The position numbers were made by a program, and so were the translations under genes. From contig SVAL01000004.1 in NCBI GenBank assembly GCA_015059405.1, positions 25,817 through 89,816 on the forward strand: a stretch of 64,000 nt of DNA. Direction: 5' to 3'. Shown one piece after another: positions 3,901-63,041 of the stretch. Position 1 is the first letter of the stretch, and every line of letters begins with the position of its first letter. The DNA is from Bacillota bacterium (GTDB lineage: Bacteria; Bacillota_I; Bacilli_A; RF39; UBA660). A model generated the notes under the pieces. It was not told the origin of the DNA, ran no database searches, and was given only the letters and a program-made list of their open reading frames with translations.

Positions 3901-4379
3901 TATTTTTTATTACTTTTTTCTATAACTTTAGGAATAGATGCCCCAATCATTCTATCTACAAACTCTAAATATCCAGAATAATCATTTTCCCCAGATAATC
4001 TAAAATTAGCAACAGATACAATTGTATCTTTAAAGAACCTAACTCCACTTTTACATTCATAATCATAGCCAGATTCTTTATCTTCAACCGGACTAAACTT
4101 AGCTGATGCAACTATTAAATTTCCAAATGTTACAAAATCAGACAAACTATCATCATCACTTTTTATATATTCAATTAAATTAGAAAAACCAAGTCCACTT
4201 GAATAAGCTAAATCATCTTTATTAGGTAAAGAACTTCTACTAACTATCTCAGGATACATTTTATAATCATCTGGTAAATTCATCATATAAGAATGATCAT
4301 CTATTTTTTCAAGTTCTATCCCAACCTCTTCTGCAGCTTCAAAATCTTCTTCATAACTATCATATACTAATACTTTCAT
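3900..4379 (-). CDS. Hypothetical acidic cytoplasmic protein
   Basis: 159-aa ORF. ATG preceded by GAGGT. No signal peptide and no motif I recognise. Confidence 0.5.
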   Translation of the reverse strand: MKVLVYDSYEEDFEAAEEVGIELEKIDDHSYMMNLPDDYKMYPEIVSRSSLPNKDDLAYSSGLGFSNLIEYIKSDDDSLSDFVTFGNLIVASAKFSPVEDKESGYDYECKSGVRFFKDTIVSVANFRLSGENDYSGYLEFVDRMIGASIPKVIEKSNKK

Positions 4380-4419
4380 ATTGCTACCTCACTCTATAAT
4401 AAAAATATCATATTTTTAC

Positions 4420-5895
4420 TTATAAAACAATGGCAATCATATTATTACTTCCTTTATTTACAACTTTAGTAAGAGTATTTTGTAGTTTAAATCTAATATT
4501 ATCTGGCATCATATTAATCTTAGATTGAATACCTTCTTTAACAATATTGTCTAAACTTCTCCCAAATATTTCACTATGCCAAATACTCTCTGGTTCGCGA
4601 TCATAGTCTTTCATTATATAATCAATTAATTCCTTACTTTGTGCCTCACTCCCAATTATTGGTTCAAAACTACTTTGAACATCTACCCTAATCATATGAA
4701 TAGATGGTGCGATAGCCTTTAATTTAACACCAAATCTAGAGCCTTGTTTAACAACTTCTGGTTTTTCTAACTTCATATCAGAAAGACTCGGAGTAGCAAC
4801 ACCATATCCTGTTTGTTTTACCATTCTAAGTGCATATTTAATTTGATCATATTCACATTTTGCTTCATTAAAATCTTGAAATAACGATAATAACTCCGCT
4901 TTATTACTAACATCAATCTTAATAATATCCGTAAGAGCTTTACTATATAAATCACAAGGTGCTTCTAATGATACAATAACCTCACCAGTAGAAGGATCAA
5001 CATTAGATAAATATGCTTTTTCTATATTTTCATTTTCTAAAAATCCCTTTGTGATATTATCAATATCTCTTAATTTATCAACTTCGACTACACTATTTTT
5101 AATACTTTCAATATAACTATTCTTAATAGTATTTTTATTATTTAAAATTGCAATCCATTCCGGCATATTAACTTTAACTTCTAAAATAGGAAATTCATAT
5201 AACGCTTCTCTTAAAATATCATATATCTCATTCTCACTAATATTTTCTACACTAACAGGTACAACTGGAACATTATGTTCTTTTCTTAACGATTCCGCTA
5301 AACGAATTGTTTCTGGAAGTGTTGGATGAGTAGAATTTAATACTACAATAAATGGTTTACCTATTTCTTTTAATTCTGAAATAACTCTATTTTCAGCTTC
5401 TAAATAATCACTTCTTGTAAACTCACCAATACTACCATCAGTAGTAACCACAATACCAATAGTTGAATGTTCCTTAATAACTTTTTCTGTTCCCATTTCT
5501 GCTGCTTCAATAAATGGAACTTCTCCATCAACCCAAGGACACTTTACCATTCTAGGACCATTTTCATCCTCAGCGCCTTTGCAATTATCAATTAAATAAC
5601 CAACACAATCAATAAGTCTAATATTACAAGAAAAATCATCTATCTCTACCTTAGCTGCATTATTAGGAACAAATTTAGGTTCAATAGTCATAATAGTTTT
5701 ACCAGACGCACTTTGTGGAAGTTCATCCAAAGCTCTTTTCTTTTCATATTCATCCTTAATATAAGGAACAACTAAATGTTCAATAAATTTTTTTATAAAA
5801 GTACTTTTACCAGTTCTAACACCACCAACAATACCTAAATATATATCTCCACCAGTTCTTAATGCTATATTTTTAATTAATTCTTTTTTATCCAT
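4420..5895 (-). CDS. spoIVA: Stage IV sporulation protein A (spore coat morphogenetic ATPase)
   Basis: 491 aa. N-terminus RTGGDIYLGIVGGVRTGKSTFIKKF (Walker A) and overall length match SpoIVA. Confidence 0.95.
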   Translation of the reverse strand: MDKKELIKNIALRTGGDIYLGIVGGVRTGKSTFIKKFIEHLVVPYIKDEYEKKRALDELPQSASGKTIMTIEPKFVPNNAAKVEIDDFSCNIRLIDCVGYLIDNCKGAEDENGPRMVKCPWVDGEVPFIEAAEMGTEKVIKEHSTIGIVVTTDGSIGEFTRSDYLEAENRVISELKEIGKPFIVVLNSTHPTLPETIRLAESLRKEHNVPVVPVSVENISENEIYDILREALYEFPILEVKVNMPEWIAILNNKNTIKNSYIESIKNSVVEVDKLRDIDNITKGFLENENIEKAYLSNVDPSTGEVIVSLEAPCDLYSKALTDIIKIDVSNKAELLSLFQDFNEAKCEYDQIKYALRMVKQTGYGVATPSLSDMKLEKPEVVKQGSRFGVKLKAIAPSIHMIRVDVQSSFEPIIGSEAQSKELIDYIMKDYDREPESIWHSEIFGRSLDNIVKEGIQSKINMMPDNIRFKLQNTLTKVVNKGSNNMIAIVL

Positions 5896-10608: not shown

Positions 10609-12213
10609 TTATTTTCTATAAAACTCTTTTCCTTTTAACGTATAATATATTAAATTATCATTTTCTTCTATTGTAAAATAATTAAAATATAATTCAACAT
10701 CTCCTCTAGTAGTTAAAATCTCTTTTCCCTTTGGAGTTATCACTTTATAGTCTTCACCATTTTTAACTAAGTAAACATTATTACGTGTATTAAAATAAGT
10801 ATAATTAGGAGAATCAAAAACTATTAAATCGTAATCACTAGTAATTTTTTCGCCTTTAGTATTCATTAAATAATACTTTTTACCATCTTCACTAACCCTC
10901 GCAAGACCATTTGAATCAAATACTGTAAGCGAAGATAAAGCCTTATCGCTAACCTTTTCACCGTTACTATAATAATAATACAAAGTACTATCACTATCTG
11001 TACATTTATCAACCATAGCATAAATTTCATTTTCTCTATCAGCAATCGCCCCAGAAAGAACACCTCTAGCACCAACTAAACAATTTACTTTTTTTACATT
11101 CTTACCATCTTTAAAGAAAGTTGCATTCTTATTTTCAAAAGTAATATATGTACCAGAATTTAAAACCACATTATCAGATAAATAATATTCAACAGTTTTA
11201 TTTCCTTTTTCATCTAAATAATACCTACCACTATATCCTTCAGCACAAATAACACTACCATTGCTAAAAAACATATTAGAACAAGTATTTGTTGTATATA
11301 CAACCTTATCTTTATTCATTAATTTAAACTCTTTAGCTTCTACTCCACCATTACCTTTAACTGTCATAATATATTGATCTAAATTCTTAGAATTACTCTC
11401 ATTTACATAATGTAATGTGCTAGAATTAACTTTATTAACTAATTCTTCATCAATTAAATTCAATATATAACTAACATCATTATAAAACAAAGTAGCATAC
11501 TCTTCTGTATCAGTAATATATAAATCAAAGTCATCATAAGAATCAACTCTATCTAATTTTAAAATAGATTTACCATTAACACCTAAAACTTCAAAATATT
11601 TTTGACTTCTAAGAACTATAATATTATCACTACCAATATAAGTAACAGTACTAGCTCCTATTTCATCTAAATCATAAAGTACTTTTCCATCAGTACCTAA
11701 TAAATAATCATTATATTCAGAATCGTATACTTCAAATAATTTATTAGTTCTTTCAATTCTTTTATATTTACCAAATTCAACAACAACCTCACCTTTATTA
11801 TTAATAATACCAACAGTTCCATCTGGTTTCTCAGCAATTGTCACATTATCTATATATTCATCTATATCCTTATAAATAAAATCAACTAACTTTTCACCTT
11901 CAGAATTAAAAATACCATATAATCCTTCATTATTCTTTATAACAATTGGCATATCCATAATTTTTTGTTCAACTACATCTTGTTTCTTCTCTTTTTTATC
12001 ATTCTTCATTAACTTAATACCTAAAACAACACCAACAACACAAACAACAACTAATACAGGTATTAAAATCTTCCAAATATTAAACTTAGGTTTATTTCCA
12101 GAAACATTACTAAAACTATTCTCTGTTTCTTGTGTTAAATCGTTACTATTATTAGTATTATTATTAATTACCCCTGGAATTATACCATTATTAAAATTAT
12201 TATTTTGATCCAT
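10609..12213 (-). CDS. Membrane-anchored WG/KWG-repeat protein
   Basis: N/Q-rich N-terminus, one TM helix, then many repeats of the type GLYGIFNSEGEKLVDFIYKDI and GTVGIINNKGEVVVEF, typical of WG-containing repeats. Confidence 0.6.
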   Translation of the reverse strand: MDQNNNFNNGIIPGVINNNTNNSNDLTQETENSFSNVSGNKPKFNIWKILIPVLVVVCVVGVVLGIKLMKNDKKEKKQDVVEQKIMDMPIVIKNNEGLYGIFNSEGEKLVDFIYKDIDEYIDNVTIAEKPDGTVGIINNKGEVVVEFGKYKRIERTNKLFEVYDSEYNDYLLGTDGKVLYDLDEIGASTVTYIGSDNIIVLRSQKYFEVLGVNGKSILKLDRVDSYDDFDLYITDTEEYATLFYNDVSYILNLIDEELVNKVNSSTLHYVNESNSKNLDQYIMTVKGNGGVEAKEFKLMNKDKVVYTTNTCSNMFFSNGSVICAEGYSGRYYLDEKGNKTVEYYLSDNVVLNSGTYITFENKNATFFKDGKNVKKVNCLVGARGVLSGAIADRENEIYAMVDKCTDSDSTLYYYYSNGEKVSDKALSSLTVFDSNGLARVSEDGKKYYLMNTKGEKITSDYDLIVFDSPNYTYFNTRNNVYLVKNGEDYKVITPKGKEILTTRGDVELYFNYFTIEENDNLIYYTLKGKEFYRK

Positions 12214-12244
12214 CTTATCACTCCTATCATATATTAATATAATA

Positions 12245-12673
12245 TCATAACTTTAAATCAAATTCATTAACTCTATAATCAATTTCACAAAAATCAAGTA
12301 AATCTAAAACATTATCCACATCTTTTGTGGAAACATAATAATAATTATCTTTTCTATATATAGGTTCATATTGATATATTAAAGATAAATCATTAGTTTT
12401 AAAATAAAAATTATTTCTATTAATAATAACTTTAGTATCAATCTTCTTACCATAAGAAATATAATCATCTAATTTACTAATTTCCACAAAAACACCTATT
12501 TTCTCATCTATAAAAATATCCACTTTAAAATAACCAAACAATTCCAAAGAATAAATTTCATTAATAATCAAAAACATATCTTTTAAAAAGGTACTAATAT
12601 CCCCTTCTTCTTCTAAAGAATAATTCTTATTAGTAAAAAATAAATACTTATCATCTAAAACTTCAAACTTCAT
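12245..12673 (-). CDS. Hypothetical protein (weak resemblance to MecA-type adaptor proteins)
   Basis: Start trimmed to MKFEVL (ATG 12671-12673, AGGTGA upstream). The alternation of short beta-like segments and ...YYYVSTKD... recalls MecA, but this is a weak impression. Confidence 0.35.
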   Translation of the reverse strand: MKFEVLDDKYLFFTNKNYSLEEEGDISTFLKDMFLIINEIYSLELFGYFKVDIFIDEKIGVFVEISKLDDYISYGKKIDTKVIINRNNFYFKTNDLSLIYQYEPIYRKDNYYYVSTKDVDNVLDLLDFCEIDYRVNEFDLKL

Positions 12674-12702
12674 ACATTCACCTAGTGTATAATATGAAAA
12701 CA

Positions 12703-12732
12703 AAATAAAAAAGACATATTTCTATGTCTTTT
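12703..12732 (-). terminator. Terminator downstream of the large pilin-like gene
   Basis: AAAGACATA-TTTC-TATGTCTTT, with a T-run on the minus strand. Confidence 0.7.
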
Positions 12733-12739
12733 AAAATTA

Positions 12740-14200
12740 TTAGTTAGTTTGAACTACATAAGGATCAGATGATGTTCCTGTACCTGTTGCGAGCACATCA
12801 CATTTTAAATTAATTACAGGACGTAATGAGGCTTTTAAAGAACTAATATAATACCAATCGGGATCACCATTAACTCCAACAGCCCAAACATACGCTGTAG
12901 CACCATCATCCCAAAAACCAGCAGGACTTGTTGTCCACCCTATGTTAACTCCATTATATAAATAATAATTGTTATTATTTTGTTTATAATACCCTCCAGC
13001 AAGAGCTACTTCATCATACGATATAAGACCAACTTTTAAATTTAAAATTCCTTTATCATTACCATCATTTACACATTTAAAATTAGGAATATATGATTGA
13101 TATTTTTCAAATGTGGCATTACCACCAGTAAAAGAATTGTGATATTTAACTTTTATTTGTTCACAAAAACATTCTGTTGATATATAAGAATCATATCCTT
13201 TTCCTTTTATATTTGTTTTATACCAATTATCTACAGTTGTCTTTGCAGCATCGCTATTTGAATAATACATTTTATCATAGGTATTAAATTTATTATTAAA
13301 AAAATAAGTTAAATCGTTAATTCTCCCATTTAATATTATTCTTACTGTTCCATCTTCATTTATTCTGATTATCCTCCAAGTTTGATTTGCAAATTTAACA
13401 AAATTATTTTTGACATCTCCTCTAAAATAATATGTTACTTCTCCACTATTAGTATCTGTTGATACATATAATCCACTTGCATCAGAAGTATTATTACTTG
13501 ATGTTGTTAGTGTTGGTTTTGCTGTTATTACTGTATTATGTTTTAATATTAGATTTGAAAGTCTCTTTTCTCTATCACTTTCTACTTGTTCATAATTTGT
13601 TCCTTTTTGTGAAAGTGTACATGTTGTTTTACCATTTCCTACTTCTCCTTCACTTAAAGCATCTAATACTATTAAACTTGTATTTTCATCTACTTTAAAT
13701 CCACTCCAATTATCTAGAGAAGTTATATTAACTACATTTCCTGATGATGGTTTTACAATATCTAATCCTGTTTGAATTTGTTTTCCTTGTTCATTTAACT
13801 TTGCTTGACTAGTTGGATATAGTCCATATCCTGCACTATCTTTAAAAGTATACCCATAAGTATATGATGATGTATCATCATTATATTGTACAAGTACATA
13901 TGCCCAGTATGCATTACTCGCTTGATGCCATGCGCCAAATGGATTTGTTCCTCCTCTTTCTAAAGCAATACATTCAATTGGAACTGCATATATGGTATTT
14001 GATTTTGTAAATGTATATGTTAAATCATTTACTTCATTTACCATTGCTGTTATATAATTACCTATTGTACTAACTACTGTTTTCTTTCTAGATTCAGTTA
14101 TATACTTAGTTACACTTGGTATTGCGATTGCCATTAATAATCCTAATATCACAATTACCGCAAGTAACTCTATTAATGTAAAACCTTTTTTATTCTTCAT
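12740..14200 (-). CDS. Large prepilin-type N-terminal cleavage/methylation domain protein (pilin/pseudopilin-like) with a distinct C-terminal globular domain
   Basis: MKNKKG|FTLIELLAVIVILGLLMAIAIPSV is a canonical class III (PilD-type) signal with Glu at +5. The C-terminal ...WTTSPAG...VWAVGVNG...LRPVINLK...SSDPYVV resembles the DUF6273-like W..SP/..RP.I.L domain. Start trimmed to the ATG at 14198-14200 (AGGAG upstream). Confidence 0.85.
   Translation of the reverse strand: MKNKKGFTLIELLAVIVILGLLMAIAIPSVTKYITESRKKTVVSTIGNYITAMVNEVNDLTYTFTKSNTIYAVPIECIALERGGTNPFGAWHQASNAYWAYVLVQYNDDTSSYTYGYTFKDSAGYGLYPTSQAKLNEQGKQIQTGLDIVKPSSGNVVNITSLDNWSGFKVDENTSLIVLDALSEGEVGNGKTTCTLSQKGTNYEQVESDREKRLSNLILKHNTVITAKPTLTTSSNNTSDASGLYVSTDTNSGEVTYYFRGDVKNNFVKFANQTWRIIRINEDGTVRIILNGRINDLTYFFNNKFNTYDKMYYSNSDAAKTTVDNWYKTNIKGKGYDSYISTECFCEQIKVKYHNSFTGGNATFEKYQSYIPNFKCVNDGNDKGILNLKVGLISYDEVALAGGYYKQNNNNYYLYNGVNIGWTTSPAGFWDDGATAYVWAVGVNGDPDWYYISSLKASLRPVINLKCDVLATGTGTSSDPYVVQTN
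13583..14200 (-). repeat. Copy 1 of a dispersed paralogous module (pilin N-terminal roughly 206 codons)
   Basis: By eye, residues 1-146 differ from the product of 58660-59538 at only 4 positions (MKNKK vs MKDKK, TKSN vs TEAN, NDDT vs NDQT). About 60 further residues are still alignable. The DNA shows many synonymous differences. Confidence 0.85.
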
Positions 14201-14228
14201 TTGACACACTCCTCTATTTTCTACTAAA

Positions 14229-14256
14229 ATCATACCCCCCCCCGGTCTTTTGTCAA
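14229..14256 (-). promoter_or_regulatory. Sigma-A-type promoter of the large pilin-like gene, with a G9 tract inside the spacer
   Basis: Minus strand reads TTGACA (14251-14256), then AAAGACC+GGGGGGGGG (16 nt), then TATGAT (14229-14234). The RBS and ATG follow 20-30 nt downstream. Confidence 0.6.
14235..14243. repeat. C9/G9 homopolymer
   Basis: Nine consecutive C on the plus strand. It is the only long G/C homopolymer I saw in this very AT-rich window. Confidence 0.95.
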
Positions 14257-14300
14257 GGTTTTACATTTTTTATTTATTTGTTTACAAAATAAAAAAGAGA

Positions 14301-14894
14301 TTAAATAACCTCTATAGATAAATTATCTATTTTAGTTAAAATCTCTTCTCTTCCTAGCTTACTAACACTTGAGAATAATATTATGTCATCTCCAACAACT
14401 AATTTCATAGTATCCATAAGTTGTTTATATGTTTTATCCTTTTTAGATGGACTAACTTTATCTACTTTAGTCGCAACTATTGTTACAGGAATATTATAAT
14501 ATTTTAAGAAATTATACATTAATAAATCATCTTCTGTAGGTTTATGACGAAAATCTACAAGTAAGAATACTCTTTTTAATTCATGACGATTCTTTATATA
14601 TTCTTCAATCATCATACCAAATTTCTTTTGTTGTTCCTTATTTACAGCAGCATATCCATACCCTGGAACATCTACTAAATAAAATGTGTCATTTACAAGA
14701 TAAAAGTTTAAGGTTTGAGTTTTACCAGGTCTTGCAGAAGTTCTAGCTAAGTTCTTTCTACTAACTAAAGTATTAACAAAACTACTTTTACCTACATTAC
14801 TTCTACCTACCATTAAAAATTCAGGTAAATCTTCATCAGGATATTGACTACGTCTTACCGCAACAACATCTAAATTAACACTATTAATCTTCAT
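14301..14894 (-). CDS. engB: Ribosome biogenesis GTP-binding protein YsxC/EngB (YihA)
   Basis: GRSNVGKSSFVNTL, DVPGYGYA and TKVDK boxes. 197 aa. Confidence 0.9.
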   Translation of the reverse strand: MKINSVNLDVVAVRRSQYPDEDLPEFLMVGRSNVGKSSFVNTLVSRKNLARTSARPGKTQTLNFYLVNDTFYLVDVPGYGYAAVNKEQQKKFGMMIEEYIKNRHELKRVFLLVDFRHKPTEDDLLMYNFLKYYNIPVTIVATKVDKVSPSKKDKTYKQLMDTMKLVVGDDIILFSSVSKLGREEILTKIDNLSIEVI

Positions 14895-14896
14895 AA

Positions 14897-15847
14897 TTAC
14901 ACCTCATTACTCATATTAATATAATCTAAACATATTTCGTCTAATTCTTTTAAAAGTTTATCAGCAGTTTCTTTATCTTTAACTCTAGCACCTGCTGCAA
15001 ACTTATGTCCACCACCATTATACTTTTCAGCAATGGTATTAACTATCGGACCACGACTTCTTATATTAAATTTATAAATACCATTTTTTAAGTCCTCAGA
15101 AATCATAACCCATACTAAAACTTCTGAAATATTATTAAGATTATTAACCAAATTACCAGCACTACCAGAATCTACTCCTAGTTCATTAATAATTTGATTC
15201 GTAATCATTATATGCGCTAAACCATTTTTAGTAACTTCCATATTTTGTTCTATATAACCTTGTAAACGAATTTCCTTTAAAGGTCTTAAGAAAATATTCT
15301 CATATAACTTAGGAACATCCAACCTATATTTAGCAAGTAAATCAGATACCATTAAAAAAGTCTTTGAAGTAGTAGAGAATAAAAATCTATTTGTATCAGA
15401 TACAATTCCCATAAATAATACTTCTGCAATTTCTTCATCCATTAATAACTCAGTTTTATTAATAAAATCTAAAATAATTTCTGATGCACTAGATGCCTTA
15501 TCATCAATATATTCAATATCACAATAAGTCTCAATATAAGGATGATGATCAATCTTAATCATCTTAGAAAAGTTACTAAAATCTGGTAAATCTACACGTT
15601 TTTTATCAGGAGTATCAACTACTATTAACAACCCATCTAATTCACTAGGCATACGATCTAACTTAGGAAAATAATTAAACTTCGAACTACTATTTCCAAC
15701 TGCATAAACTTGCTTATTGGGAAAAGTTGCCTTAATAGAATCACGTAATGCTACTTGACTAGCCCAAGCATCAGGATCTACCCCAATATGTCTAGCAATT
15801 ACTATTTTGTCATATTTTTTTATTTCTTCAAAAATATCACTATACAT
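14897..15847 (-). CDS. nrnA: DHH/DHHA1 phosphoesterase, NrnA-like oligoribonuclease/pAp phosphatase
   Basis: ARHIGVDPDAWAS, IDHHPY (DHH) and GGGHKFAAGA (DHHA1) motifs. 316 aa. Confidence 0.8.
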   Translation of the reverse strand: MYSDIFEEIKKYDKIVIARHIGVDPDAWASQVALRDSIKATFPNKQVYAVGNSSSKFNYFPKLDRMPSELDGLLIVVDTPDKKRVDLPDFSNFSKMIKIDHHPYIETYCDIEYIDDKASSASEIILDFINKTELLMDEEIAEVLFMGIVSDTNRFLFSTTSKTFLMVSDLLAKYRLDVPKLYENIFLRPLKEIRLQGYIEQNMEVTKNGLAHIMITNQIINELGVDSGSAGNLVNNLNNISEVLVWVMISEDLKNGIYKFNIRSRGPIVNTIAEKYNGGGHKFAAGARVKDKETADKLLKELDEICLDYINMSNEV

Positions 15848-17171: not shown

Positions 17172-17381
17172 TTACTTAGTATTATAACCTGAACCTAATT
17201 GACTCATACCATTTTGTACTAATCTTTTAGTAATTTCTCCACCAACTCTACCGTTAGCACGGCTAGTAGCATCTGGACCTAAATTTACACCAAATTCATT
17301 AGCTATTTCATATTTCATTTTATCGATAGCTTGTTTAGCTCCTGGAACGTACATTTTCATTGAAGATTTATTGTTGTTCAT
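17172..17381 (-). CDS. Small acid-soluble spore protein, alpha/beta type
   Basis: [12 protein letters not shown]...[15 protein letters not shown] is the conserved alpha/beta SASP core. Start trimmed to MNNNK (ATG 17379-17381), because the GTG of the track ORF lies inside the GGAGGTG RBS. Confidence 0.9.
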
Positions 17382-17454
17382 GTTTTTCACCTCCACACTA
17401 ATAGAATGTGAAAAAACTTATAAAACATACATTATTTTTTTTGGTAATTATTTC

Positions 17455-57351: not shown

Positions 57352-57450
57352 TTATCTTTTATTAAGAACGAGGGAGAGACTAAGCTCAGTGAACTCGTAC
57401 CAACCTGCATTATGTAAGGTGGTAAAGCTAGAACGATGAAGGAAAGAACT
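57352..57450 (+). promoter_or_regulatory. SAM-I (S-box) riboswitch aptamer in the metK leader
   Basis: P1 UCUUUU/GAAAGA. P2 with a kink-turn-like GAG-GGA-GAG[ACUAAG]CUC-AGUGAA-CUC. P3 UACCAACC...GGUGGUA, matching the conserved GCAACC/GGUGC core. It lies upstream of metK, the classical S-box target. Confidence 0.75.
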
Positions 57451-57514: not shown

Positions 57515-58606
57515 ATGAAATATTTTTTTACCAGTGAATCAGTAACTGAAGGTCACCCAGATAAAATGTGTGATAAAATAGCTGATAAAATTCTTGATAG
57601 TGCACTGAAGCAAGATAAAAATTCTAAAATGGCAGTAGAAGCAACTATTAAAGATGATTTAATTTTAATTTACGGAGAAGCAAAAACTAATGCAAAATTA
57701 AACTATGAAAAAATCGCAAAAGAAGTTGTAAAAGAAATTGGTTATGAAGAACAGTTCCAAGTAATAACAAAAATAAGTACACAATCAAGTGAAATTAATA
57801 ATGCCGTACAAAAAGATAAAATATGTGCAGGAGATCAAGGTATAATGTTTGGATATGCTACAAATGAAACAGATACATTTATGCCAATGCCAATATATTA
57901 TGCTCATGAACTAGCTAAGCAACTAACAAAAGTAAGAAGAGAAGATAAAAACTCTCCTCTAAAACCAGATGGAAAAACACAAGTAACTGTTGAATATGAA
58001 GATAATAAACCTATAAGGATAGATACTATTATCGTATCTAGTCAACATACAAAAGAAATAACACAAGAAGAATTAGAAAAATATATAAAAGAAAACGTTA
58101 TAGATAAAATAATTAAAAAAGAATTAATTGATAAAAACACAAAAATACTTATCAACACAAGTGGTTCATTCACAATAGGTGGTCCATTTGGAGACAGTGG
58201 TACAACAGGTAGAAAAATAGTTGTTGATACTTATGGAGGATTCTCTAAAGTTGGTGGTGGATGTTTCTCAAGTAAAGATCCATCTAAAGTAGATAGGAGT
58301 GCTGCATACTATGCAAGATTTGTTGCAAAAAATATTGTTGCCCATAACTTCTGTGATAGATGTGAAATACAACTATCTTATGCAATTGGAAAAGAATATC
58401 CAATATCTATTCATATAGATACATTTGCAACAGAAAAGAAACCACTAAAAGAAATACATAAATATGTAGAAGAAAACTTTAACTTCTCAGTAGATAACAT
58501 AATAAAAGAATTAGATCTACAAAAACCAATATATTATAACCTAGCAGCATATGGACACTTTGGTAGAAAAGATCTAAATCTAACATGGGAACAAATAAAA
58601 GATTAA
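57515..58606 (+). CDS. metK: S-adenosylmethionine synthetase
   Basis: FTSESVTEGHPDKMCDKIAD, GDQGIMFGYA, GGPFGDSGTTGRKI and GGGCFSSKDPSKVDRSAAY motifs. At 363 aa it is at the short end for MetK. Confidence 0.95.
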   Translation: MKYFFTSESVTEGHPDKMCDKIADKILDSALKQDKNSKMAVEATIKDDLILIYGEAKTNAKLNYEKIAKEVVKEIGYEEQFQVITKISTQSSEINNAVQKDKICAGDQGIMFGYATNETDTFMPMPIYYAHELAKQLTKVRREDKNSPLKPDGKTQVTVEYEDNKPIRIDTIIVSSQHTKEITQEELEKYIKENVIDKIIKKELIDKNTKILINTSGSFTIGGPFGDSGTTGRKIVVDTYGGFSKVGGGCFSSKDPSKVDRSAAYYARFVAKNIVAHNFCDRCEIQLSYAIGKEYPISIHIDTFATEKKPLKEIHKYVEENFNFSVDNIIKELDLQKPIYYNLAAYGHFGRKDLNLTWEQIKD

Positions 58607-58622
58607 AAAAACTAAATAAAAC

Positions 58623-58661
58623 AAAAAAAGATATCCACATAAATTGTGAATATCTTTTTTT
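58623..58661. terminator. Bidirectional terminator between metK and the second pilin-like gene
   Basis: AGATATCCACA-TAAAT-TGTGAATATCT has one mismatch, which becomes a G-U pair on the minus transcript. It is flanked by A- and T-runs. Confidence 0.7.
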
Positions 58662-59538
58662 AGCACCAAACTACCGAACCTAACCAGTAAGAAATAGTCT
58701 CATTAATAACATCTGTAACCAAAACAAAAGATGAACATTCTTCATCACCATAATATTGAACATAATTATCTGAAGAAGTATAAATATTATTATTTAACAC
58801 TGAATAACCAGCAGTATTGTATCTACTATCAACCCATTCGCCCCATGTCATTCCTTCTACAAATTCATAGGCATTTCCATTTACCTTAAAAGTTAAGGTA
58901 TTAGGTTTATTCTCTTCTTGCACTTGTTCATAATTGTTCCCCTTTTGTTGAAGTGTACATGTTGTTTTACCATCTCCTGTATTTCCTTCACTTTCTGCTA
59001 CAAGTACTACTAGTTTAGTTGTGTCATTTACTACAAATCCATTCCAATTTTTTAATTCTGTTATAGTTGTTACTTTTCCATTTTTAGGTCTAGATAAACT
59101 AAGCCCTGTTTGTATTTGTTTTCCTTGTTCATTTAACTTTGCTTGACTAGTTGGATATAATCCATATCCTGCACTATCTTTAAACGTATATCCATATGTA
59201 TATGATGATGTTTGGTCATTATATTGTACTAGTACGTATGCCCAGTATGCATTACTTGCTTGATGCCATGCACCAAATGGATTTGTACCGCCTCTTTCAA
59301 GTGCAATACACTCTATTGGTACTGCATATATAGTATTTGCTTCAGTAAATGTATAAGTTAAATCATTTACTTCATTTACCATTGCTGTTATATAGTTTCC
59401 TATTGTACTAACCACTGTTTTCTTTCTTGATTCTGTTATATACTTTGTTACACTAGGAATAGCTATAGCCATAAGTAAACCTAATATTACTATTACCGCT
59501 AAAAGTTCTATTAATGTAAATCCTTTCTTATCTTTCAT
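58660..59538 (-). CDS. Prepilin-type N-terminal cleavage/methylation domain protein, paralogue 2 (different C-terminal domain)
   Basis: MKDKKG|FTLIELLAVIVILGLLMAIAIPSV. By eye, the first 146 aa differ from the 12740-14200 product at only 4 positions. The C-terminal roughly 85 aa (TFKVNGNAYEFVEGMTWGEWV...) are unrelated to it. Confidence 0.85.
   Translation of the reverse strand: MKDKKGFTLIELLAVIVILGLLMAIAIPSVTKYITESRKKTVVSTIGNYITAMVNEVNDLTYTFTEANTIYAVPIECIALERGGTNPFGAWHQASNAYWAYVLVQYNDQTSSYTYGYTFKDSAGYGLYPTSQAKLNEQGKQIQTGLSLSRPKNGKVTTITELKNWNGFVVNDTTKLVVLVAESEGNTGDGKTTCTLQQKGNNYEQVQEENKPNTLTFKVNGNAYEFVEGMTWGEWVDSRYNTAGYSVLNNNIYTSSDNYVQYYGDEECSSFVLVTDVINETISYWLGSVVWC
58921..59538 (-). repeat. 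Copy 2 of the dispersed pilin N-terminal module
   Basis: See copy 1 (13583-14200). Confidence 0.85.
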
Positions 59539-59601: not shown

Positions 59602-59630
59602 ATTTTAGCAACCAAATGATTGCATGTCAA
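59602..59630 (-). promoter_or_regulatory. Sigma-A-type promoter of pilin paralogue 2
   Basis: Minus strand reads TTGACA (59625-59630), a 17-nt spacer, then TAAAAT (59602-59607). There is no homopolymer in the spacer. Confidence 0.55.
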
Positions 59631-62145: not shown

Positions 62146-63041
62146 TATAATTTCTTTTGAAACTTACCATCTATTAAAACTCCATGAGTCTTAACCATAA
62201 AAGCATTTTTATCTAAACTAGGTAAATTTCTTTCTAGTCTTTGTAATTCAAACTTTGATAATACTAGATATGTTATATATGTCTTAGTATCTTTATACTC
62301 TCCATTTGCTTCCCAAGTAGTAGCTCCTCTATCCAAATCTTTTTGAACAAAATCTACTATTTTATCCGGTTTCTTCTTAGTAAATATTATCGCTGTAGAG
62401 CATATATTTTGTTCGTGAGTCTTATCAACCATAAACATAGCAAAAACAGAAAATAATATTGAATATATCATTGTACCTAAACCATACGTAACTCCACAGA
62501 TAATATAAATAACTCCATTAAATAAAAGTCCAAATTTACCAACAGAAAAATTTCTGTTTCTTTGACTTATCGCAATTCCAATAATATCAGTACCACCAGT
62601 AGATGCACCTGCTGATAAAGCCATACCAGTACCTACTCCTGCTAAGATTCCCCCTATTAATACAGAAGTAAGTAAATCACTAACTACTGGAGCATTCAAA
62701 GTTGGAATAAATGTTAAAAACAAAGTTTGTATTGTAACACATAGCAAAGTTCTTGAAAAAAATGTCTTTCCTATATATTTATAAGCAAGAATAAATAAAG
62801 GTACATTAATTAAAAAGTTTAACATCCCAGCAATATCAAAATTAATATTAAGATTTAAAGTATCCACAAGCGCAGTTCTAATTAACTGAGCAAGACCAAG
62901 TATTCCTCCATTATATAATCCCATTGGAATAATAAAAATATTTAAAGAAAAACAAAATATAAATATTCCAAGTATTGCTCTAAATAATTGATAAAAATTC
63001 CATTTAAATATATTATTAAAAGTATCATCAAATTTACTCAT
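62145..63041 (-). CDS. YitT family (DUF161/DUF2179) membrane protein
   Basis: About 5 TM helices with GG-rich loops (GASTGGTDIIG), and a C-terminal DUF2179-like soluble domain (RGATTWEANGEY...). Confidence 0.8.
   Translation of the reverse strand: MSKFDDTFNNIFKWNFYQLFRAILGIFIFCFSLNIFIIPMGLYNGGILGLAQLIRTALVDTLNLNINFDIAGMLNFLINVPLFILAYKYIGKTFFSRTLLCVTIQTLFLTFIPTLNAPVVSDLLTSVLIGGILAGVGTGMALSAGASTGGTDIIGIAISQRNRNFSVGKFGLLFNGVIYIICGVTYGLGTMIYSILFSVFAMFMVDKTHEQNICSTAIIFTKKKPDKIVDFVQKDLDRGATTWEANGEYKDTKTYITYLVLSKFELQRLERNLPSLDKNAFMVKTHGVLIDGKFQKKL

Follow-up and report, generated by a model that had tools for sequence, protein, structure and literature searches.

A poly-G tract in the promoter spacer of a modular pilin gene as a candidate expression switch in low-GC gut Bacilli

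Can the expression of a bacterial pilin gene be set by the number of G residues between the −35 and −10 sites of its promoter? This question arises from a run of nine G residues in the promoter spacer of a gene for a prepilin-type protein of 486 amino acid residues, located on the minus strand of the 64,000-nucleotide stretch of DNA analyzed here (the window). Phase variation driven by repeats has been studied in detail in a few pathogens, namely in Neisseria, Haemophilus, Campylobacter, and Mycoplasma. For uncultured Gram-positive gut commensals there is, to our knowledge, hardly any documentation of it, and invertible promoters got most of the attention there. The set of sequences used for comparison was obtained by contig look-ups for the identical protein and its homologs in JGI, ENA, and NCBI assemblies; these contigs carry L numbers below.

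Architecture of the promoter and its poly-G tract

On the minus strand, a −35 hexamer TTGACA in full agreement with the consensus (positions 14251 to 14256) is followed by the non-repetitive bases AAAGACC (14244 to 14250), the nine G residues GGGGGGGGG (14235 to 14243, a C9 run on the plus strand), and a −10 hexamer TATGAT that agrees with the consensus in five of six bases (14229 to 14234). The spacer comprises 7 + 9 = 16 nt, 9 of which are G. The transcription start site, as deduced from the geometry of sigma-70-type promoters, would be the A at position 14222, 7 nt past the −10 box. A gap of 13 nt separates the −10 box from the ribosome-binding site AGAGGAG (14209 to 14215), which is positioned 8 nt before the ATG of the pilin gene (14200 to 14198), and this ATG is found 28 nt past the −10 box. 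The arrangement TTGACA-AAAGACC-G9-TATGAT with its 16-nt spacer, and a ribosome-binding site and start codon of a prepilin-type gene shortly downstream, had been claimed by the earlier note on this DNA and was confirmed at positions 14256 to 14229. The same was true for the claim that this is the sole long G or C run in 64 kb and improbable by chance. In a scripted search of the window, whose G+C content is about 26%, no second run of G or C reached 6 bases, and the runners-up were three C5 runs; i.i.d. and first-order Markov models alike predict 0.008 C9 runs for the plus strand.

In a consensus promoter scan of the region from 12000 to 15500, the TTGACA/TATGAT pair reached the top rank with 11 of 12 matches, tied with one site on the plus strand, and no other site on the coding strand equaled it. 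Since shuffles of this AT-rich region contain promoter-like matches at least as often, the promoter scan alone proves little. A search with Rfam indicated no RNA family at the site of the tract. An antisense promoter-like match on the plus strand, TTGACA-N18-TAAAAT (11 of 12, positions 14201 to 14230), overlaps the pilin leader and the −10 box and is directed toward the poly-C run and engB; it is probably due to chance. The sequence TGTCAA between the ribosome-binding site and the ATG is kept in all copies of the promoter cassette described below.

The pilin and its transcription unit

The open reading frame (12740 to 14200, minus strand) encodes a modular prepilin-type protein with a match to PF07963 (N_methyl, E = 4.8e-9) and a class III signal, MKNKKG|FTLIE (MKNKKG|FTLIELLAVIVILGLL). 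The leader carries the signature of G at −1, F at +1, and E at +5, and the residues G6, F7, and E11 are invariant across 56 homologs. An AlphaFold2 model based on these 56 homologs (pLDDT 90.3, pTM 0.85) contains a 50-residue N-terminal α1 helix, residues 9 to 58, which is packed on a β-sheet with strands between residues 69 and 131. According to this model, the pilin module composed of signal, α1 helix, and β-sheet would comprise about residues 1 to 205, followed by a β-rich C-terminal module of about 270 residues. There was no Pfam match for the C-terminal module, and a Foldseek search against the PDB gave a weak match to an IgA peptidase of Thomasclavelia ramosa (9qa6, E = 8e-5) as the sole significant one. 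The 486-residue protein has more than 4000 relatives in the databases. From its sequence and predicted structure, the product fits best among the modular type IV pilins. Because of the pilin fold and the signal, it is predicted to be a subunit of a surface filament, which would be a typical cargo of a contingency locus, comparable to the products of porA and opc. No Walker motif of a PilB-type assembly ATPase was found in the 64-kb window, and its pilin-like genes are two only.

The pilin gene has engB (14301 to 14894) on one side and, on the other, two genes without an assigned function, for products of 152 residues and of 534 residues with WG repeats, all on the minus strand. Upstream of the pilin unit are the ackA-nrnA-engB genes, and the intergenic DNA between engB and the pilin gene comprises only about 100 nt. 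RNA folding yielded a terminator-like hairpin (AGAGGTTATTTAATCTCT, 14296 to 14313, minus strand) that overlaps the stop codon of engB and is followed by a T-run (14284 to 14295), as well as a 10-bp terminator-like hairpin with a T-run (AAAAGACATAGAAATATGTCTTTT, 12709 to 12732, minus strand) immediately 3′ of the pilin stop codon. With hairpins and T-runs on both sides, the pilin unit should be insulated from the upstream genes and controlled by its own promoter. It looks monocistronic in its sequence, with a terminator, a promoter, a leader of about 22 nt, the open reading frame, and a second terminator. The stem of the engB hairpin is weak, with 7 AT-rich pairs; read-through past this hairpin is possible and could give tract-independent expression. 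Equivalent hairpins were predicted by RNA folding ahead of the cassette on contigs L176, L177, and L011.

The start-codon calls for this gene differ: one JGI record gives a protein of 497 residues (P0001, 12740 to 14233, minus strand) and others give 486. The ATG inside TATGAT, with which P0001 begins, was rejected as the true start codon because it is not preceded by a ribosome-binding site and sits in the −10 box; moreover, the 486-residue form begins with the canonical prepilin leader. Translational frameshifting was ruled out since the tract is located upstream of both candidate start codons.

Two other features of the window concern the host and its metabolism. A gene for a small acid-soluble spore protein (17172 to 17396, minus strand; PF00269 in the matching JGI annotation) implies a presumably endospore-forming lineage, despite the very low G+C content and the labels of the MAGs as “Bacilli/Firmicutes bacterium.” An SAM riboswitch (RF00162, 58.9 bits, 57356 to 57442, plus strand) is positioned upstream of metK (57515 to 58606).

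Spacer lengths in the absence of the tract

In sigma-70/sigma-A promoters, a spacer of 17 nt is optimal, spacers of 16 and 18 nt are weaker, and a spacer of 15 nt is much weaker. The second pilin-like gene of the window (58660 to 59538), which encodes a paralog of 292 residues, served as an internal control. Its promoter (59602 to 59630, minus strand) reads TTGACA (59630 to 59625)-N17-TAAAAT (59607 to 59602) without a tract, exactly as the earlier note had it, and the N-terminal 222 residues of its product are 81.5% identical to the 486-residue protein. The tract-free homolog on contig L097 has TTGACA-GAAAACCGAAGGAAGGA-TAAAAT, again with a 17-nt spacer and with an interrupted purine run at the position of the tract, and those on L095 and L096 have TTGATA-N17-TAAAAT and TTGTTA-N17-TAAAAT, respectively. 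In these diverged tract-free homologs, both hexamers are kept at the same distance from the ribosome-binding site with a spacer of 17 nt. The other intergenic coding-strand promoters in the window with 11 of 12 matches (59630, 10575, 9173, and 8880) all have 17 nt as well, and the G9 promoter with its 16 nt is the exception. Because the tract-free homologs keep a 17-nt spacer, they speak for TTGACA/TATGAT being the real promoter and for G10 being the probable optimum, which agrees with the optimal spacing that had been assigned to G10 before.

The cassette at other chromosomal sites

Fifteen loci fetched from JGI, ENA, and NCBI assemblies contain the same tract, which is consequently not an artifact of one assembly. 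A homologous cassette is located ahead of pilin-like genes in at least 8 unrelated genomic contexts. It starts roughly 12 nt ahead of the −35 box and reaches into the first approximately 200 codons, and its consensus is TTGACA, (A/G)AAGA(A/C)C, Gn, TA(T/A)GAT, and GGAGTGTGTCAA, followed by the pilin codons. The −35 site TTGACA is invariant in L097 and in every tract-bearing copy that reaches the −35 box, the ribosome-binding site is kept in all copies of the cassette, and the −10 site reads TAAGAT in loci C and G. Since AAAGACC is replaced by GAAGAAC in L176, this part of the spacer is apparently under less sequence constraint than the G tract.

Locus A, after engB, is that of the window and of L001, L002, and L003, all with G9. 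Locus B, after the reverse-transcriptase gene of a retroelement, has G9 in L007 and G8 in L005, L006, and L008, and locus C, between the AAA_28 and MYG1 genes, has G9 in L011 and L013 and G8 in L012. G9 is also present at locus D after aspS (L177, NCBI assembly GCA_052843105.1), at locus E after a CYTH gene (L178), and at locus G before dnaG (L179 and L180). Locus F, after a NUDIX gene (L176), has G11 and a spacer of 18 nt. At locus H, before adhE, contig L175 starts inside the tract, leaving G8 or more. G9 is the commonest state of the tract over the loci, which could point to a fixed length under selection. G10, the predicted optimum, is absent from the complete tracts of the fetched loci, perhaps because expression from most copies is down-tuned in most cells or because the favored working spacer is one of 16 nt. 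The beginning of L175 inside the tract (position 1) and of L012 at 9 nt before the tract (positions 1 to 17), two contigs of independent assemblies, is compatible with heterogeneity of the reads or with breakage of the assembly at a repeated cassette.

Eight database proteins start with MILV(D/E)NRGVCQ-MKNK, which is the translated −10 box plus the leader, and this indicates that the cassette also fronts other C-terminal modules (for example, DUF285 and LRR). The spurious MILV(D/E)NRGVCQ extension is a convenient marker of the promoter cassette at the protein level. Exact scans for the cassette with a variable-gap DNA pattern, which works locally, yielded nothing in collections of metagenome, genome, and viral contigs; this lineage is evidently absent from all three. 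Among the viral contigs, a protein-based scan gave distant matches only, and the best relative in the genome collection was 50% identical, from a Bacilli MAG of goat rectum, with no close one.

Variation of the tract length

Over 7461 bp, the alignment of contigs L007 (JGI) and L008 (ENA) is free of mismatches and has a single gap, which is one G of the tract. Similarly, L011 (JGI) and L012 (ENA) have 0 mismatches over 4498 bp and 1 gap, again in the tract. For a random single indel, the chance of falling into the 9-nt tract is about 0.001 over 7461 bp and about 0.002 over 4498 bp. None of the A/T runs of 7 or more (10 to 12 in these stretches) differs in L007/L008 or L011/L012, with about 12 kb compared. 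Since the sole indels are those in the tract and the A/T runs are unchanged, the tract appears either to change far faster than any other position or to be specifically miscalled.

Evaluation of the second possibility needs to consider the origin of the contigs. Contig L180, from the same ENA MEGAHIT series as the G8 calls, has G9 at the dnaG locus and is identical to JGI contig L179 over 4380 bp, and the G11 of L176 comes from another MEGAHIT assembly. An assembler artifact as the reason for G8 versus G9 is weakened by both contigs. Both G8-versus-G9 differences separate ENA samples (ERZ27248377 and ERZ27248436) from JGI samples, so that the G8 calls could represent either a shared, sample-specific state of the population or a technical cause. 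The comparison of tract lengths in related assemblies, which had been set in advance as a test of a candidate length switch, came out in favor of it with G8, G9, and G11. At the level of the sequence, the reading of the tract as a phase or rheostat switch in the earlier note gains support from the fact that the tract is the sole difference between otherwise identical assemblies at two loci.

A candidate switch and its alternatives

In our view, the tract probably acts from within a promoter spacer as a contingency switch or rheostat of the simple-sequence type, an arrangement replicated across a modular pilin family. The locus combines features of promoter-spacer contingency loci: a tract of slip-prone length (about 8 or more residues for G or C) between both hexamers, a polymorphism confined to the tract, and a predicted surface cargo. 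The G9 run would be a hypermutable repeat that sets the spacer length in the sigma-A-type promoter of a monocistronic gene for a modular pilin. Slipped-strand mispairing at replication may lead to gain or loss of G residues, and each step of one G would shift the −35/−10 distance by 1 bp and the relative rotation of both sites by about 36 degrees. Because of the 17-nt optimum of sigma-70/sigma-A promoters, G10 with a 17-nt spacer should be fully on, G9 as in the window (16 nt) and G11 (18 nt) should both be reduced to an intermediate level, and G8 (15 nt) should be strongly reduced, low, or off. With the cassette at several sites, the result would be a stochastic, locus-by-locus choice of the adhesin-like pilin modules that are presumably displayed on the surface.

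Alternatively, promoter and tract may be real, but the differences in length may stem from sequencing or assembly errors, which would leave a fixed promoter with a 16-nt spacer and no switching. Indeed, two related ENA MEGAHIT assemblies are the source of both G8 calls, the same loci having G9 in JGI, and the contigs L175 and L012 end at or near the tract, maybe due to a poor read quality. On the other hand, the same ENA series gives G9 at L180, and the G11 of the MEGAHIT assembly L176 at locus F is impossible as a one-base error of G9. Moreover, no A/T homopolymer differs over the 12 kb of pairwise comparison, and a consensus with k=141 requires a majority of the reads for the respective length. 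Errors are an unlikely explanation in the light of these observations. Quite unlikely as well is a conservation of the tract for a length-independent reason, either as a site for a regulator or as a rigid, GC-rich spacer that tunes melting, so that its length would be subject to slow neutral drift. The dominance of G9 over seven loci and the lack of G10 among the tracts observed fit this explanation, and the tract contributes the −14 G of an extended −10 element. However, the length of the tract changes where substitutions are zero, which implies a mutation rate orders of magnitude above that of its flanks. The spacers of 17 nt in the tract-free homologs are unrelated in sequence, which argues against the need for a specific spacer sequence, and neighboring bases of the spacer vary in L176.

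It is very improbable that TTGACA/TATGAT is not a functional promoter, with transcription instead entering from engB by read-through or beginning at another site and with a tract in untranscribed or leader DNA that has no effect. Such an explanation could refer to the weak engB hairpin, to the promoter-like matches being no commoner than in shuffles, and to pilin-like genes of a distant group (L051 and its relatives), whose G9 run is in the transcribed leader instead of the spacer. Yet the hexamers, their position relative to the ribosome-binding site, and the 17-nt spacing are kept in diverged homologs at unrelated sites that differ in their upstream genes, gene and cassette travel together, and the intergenic room amounts to only about 100 nt. 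A switch or rheostat in the promoter spacer is the preferred explanation.

Retroelements, module swapping, and other poly-G tracts

A complete diversity-generating retroelement (DGR) is present beside a pilin-like gene in L007 (3001 to 6336) and also in L005, L006, and L008 to L010. Its target in L007, P0016, has a variable region at 4283 to 4384 and a template repeat at 4602 to 4703, with 17 of 17 mismatches at template adenines. An accessory open reading frame of 127 codons and an RVT_1 reverse transcriptase of 341 residues come next, and the poly-G-promoted pilin P0009 is encoded downstream. The pilin gene of the window was rejected as a DGR target: a reverse transcriptase is absent from the window, and the template repeat of the related element finds no match in its nucleotide sequence. 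The 14 mismatches between L005 and L006 do not represent variation by the DGR, being clustered at a contig end.

Contig L004 from a related strain is 95% identical to positions 62537 to 58922 of the window. At the site of the 292-residue paralog of the window, it encodes a pilin of 490 residues with a C-terminal module like that of the G9-promoted gene. Because the homology breaks after about codon 205, this points to swapping of C-terminal modules at a conserved pilin module. At the CYTH locus, the strains differ in their pilin, which comes with the poly-G cassette in L178 and without it in L007. A portable poly-G cassette that fronts many different adhesin-like C-terminal modules at many sites, with independent slippage in each copy, swapping of these modules between strains, and a DGR in one paralog could add up to a three-tier surface variation, a combination that we put forward tentatively.

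Poly-G tracts were also seen outside promoter spacers. In L051 (2765 to 3001) and at the equivalent sites of L064, L069 (=L167), and L082, which represent four MAGs of human-gut Bacilli or “Tenericutes,” a G9 tract is located about 140 nt upstream of a pilin-like gene. A perfect TTGACA-N18-TATAAT is followed there by a conserved leader open reading frame of 19 codons (MVKEMNNKLTQNLTWGGVI*) that contains the tract and by a long terminator-like hairpin. The frames resulting from G9 and G10 stop before the hairpin, and the frame resulting from G8 or G11 reads into it. This order of elements suggests a phase-variable leader-peptide attenuator; we know of no prior description of such a device. In L094, from another Bacilli MAG, a G12 tract (393 to 404) is positioned about 190 nt upstream of a gene for a leucine-rich-repeat surface protein of 780 residues, adjoining a small pilin gene and mutL. 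Judged from these sites, poly-G tracts upstream of genes for surface proteins may be a recurrent theme in low-GC gut lineages.

Significance and comparison with known systems

Literature searches yielded no description of this pilin family or of its switch. The mechanism would be by analogy of the porA/opc/vlp kind and as such already known; new are the uncultured low-GC Bacilli host, the modular pilin cargo, and a promoter cassette spread over many loci. The data provide a concrete locus with a canonical promoter, a candidate rheostat working in steps of one base, a modular pilin cargo, several chromosomal sites, and natural G8, G9, and G11 alleles. This suggests that the repertoires of pilus tips or adhesins in these bacteria may be varied stochastically. 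On the practical side, metagenome assemblies collapse a heterogeneity of the tract into one length, and gene callers are misled, as with the 497- and 486-residue forms. Modular pilins as targets of DGRs in gut Bacilli are possibly worth a separate study.

With respect to the cargo, PilB and PilC of Streptococcus sanguinis are modular type IV pilins (PMC8179133, PMC9934059). As in the protein of the window, a pilin module with class III signal, α1 helix, and β-sheet carries a grafted C-terminal module in a monoderm; the C-terminal modules differ from that of the window, and no phase-variable promoter has been described for PilB and PilC. The fimbrial genes fim2 and fim3 of Bordetella possess a poly-C tract in their promoters, which alters the spacing between the activator site and the −10 site. 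The hifA/hifB fimbrial promoters of Haemophilus influenzae contain TA repeats (van Ham 1993, as cited in PMC5084427). In both systems, the length of a repeat in the promoter region switches a gene for a pilus or fimbrial subunit, as proposed for the locus of the window, although the class of pilus is a different one in both and the repeat of hifA/hifB is a dinucleotide repeat common to divergent promoters.

In Neisseria meningitidis, porA has a poly-G run between the −35 and −10 sites (van der Ende et al. 1995, J Bacteriol 177:2475, as cited in PMC5084427). The similarity to the window comprises the G run in the spacer and the tract lengths of about 9 to 11, and one-base changes in porA grade the expression of a surface protein. 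The gene porA is a single locus for a porin in a Gram-negative pathogen, in contrast to the many loci for modular pilins in uncultured low-GC gut Bacilli. A poly-C tract in the opc promoter of the same species was reportedly described by Sarkari et al. in 1994. A change from C11 to C12 raises the level of Opc (PMC3447861). Here, too, a homopolymer in a promoter sets the graded expression of an adhesin, but the opc promoter, to which the tract belongs, is an unusual one that lacks a canonical −35 site, and the promoter in the window has both canonical hexamers.

The vlp lipoprotein genes of Mycoplasma hyorhinis, studied by Yogev in 1991 and by Citti and Wise in 1995, are said to have poly-A in their promoter spacers. 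They are the closest parallel in the family-wide architecture, being a surface multigene family with conserved 5′ regions in a low-GC lineage of the Bacilli, and each gene has its own spacer homopolymer, resulting in combinatorial on/off expression. The vlp tracts are poly-A of about 17 nt in front of lipoproteins with repetitive C termini, whereas those described here are poly-G of 8 to 11 nt in front of pilins with swapped globular modules. If the proposed switch is true, these Bacilli would display their pilins in a combinatorial and stochastic manner, as a Gram-positive counterpart of the strategies of Neisseria and Mycoplasma.
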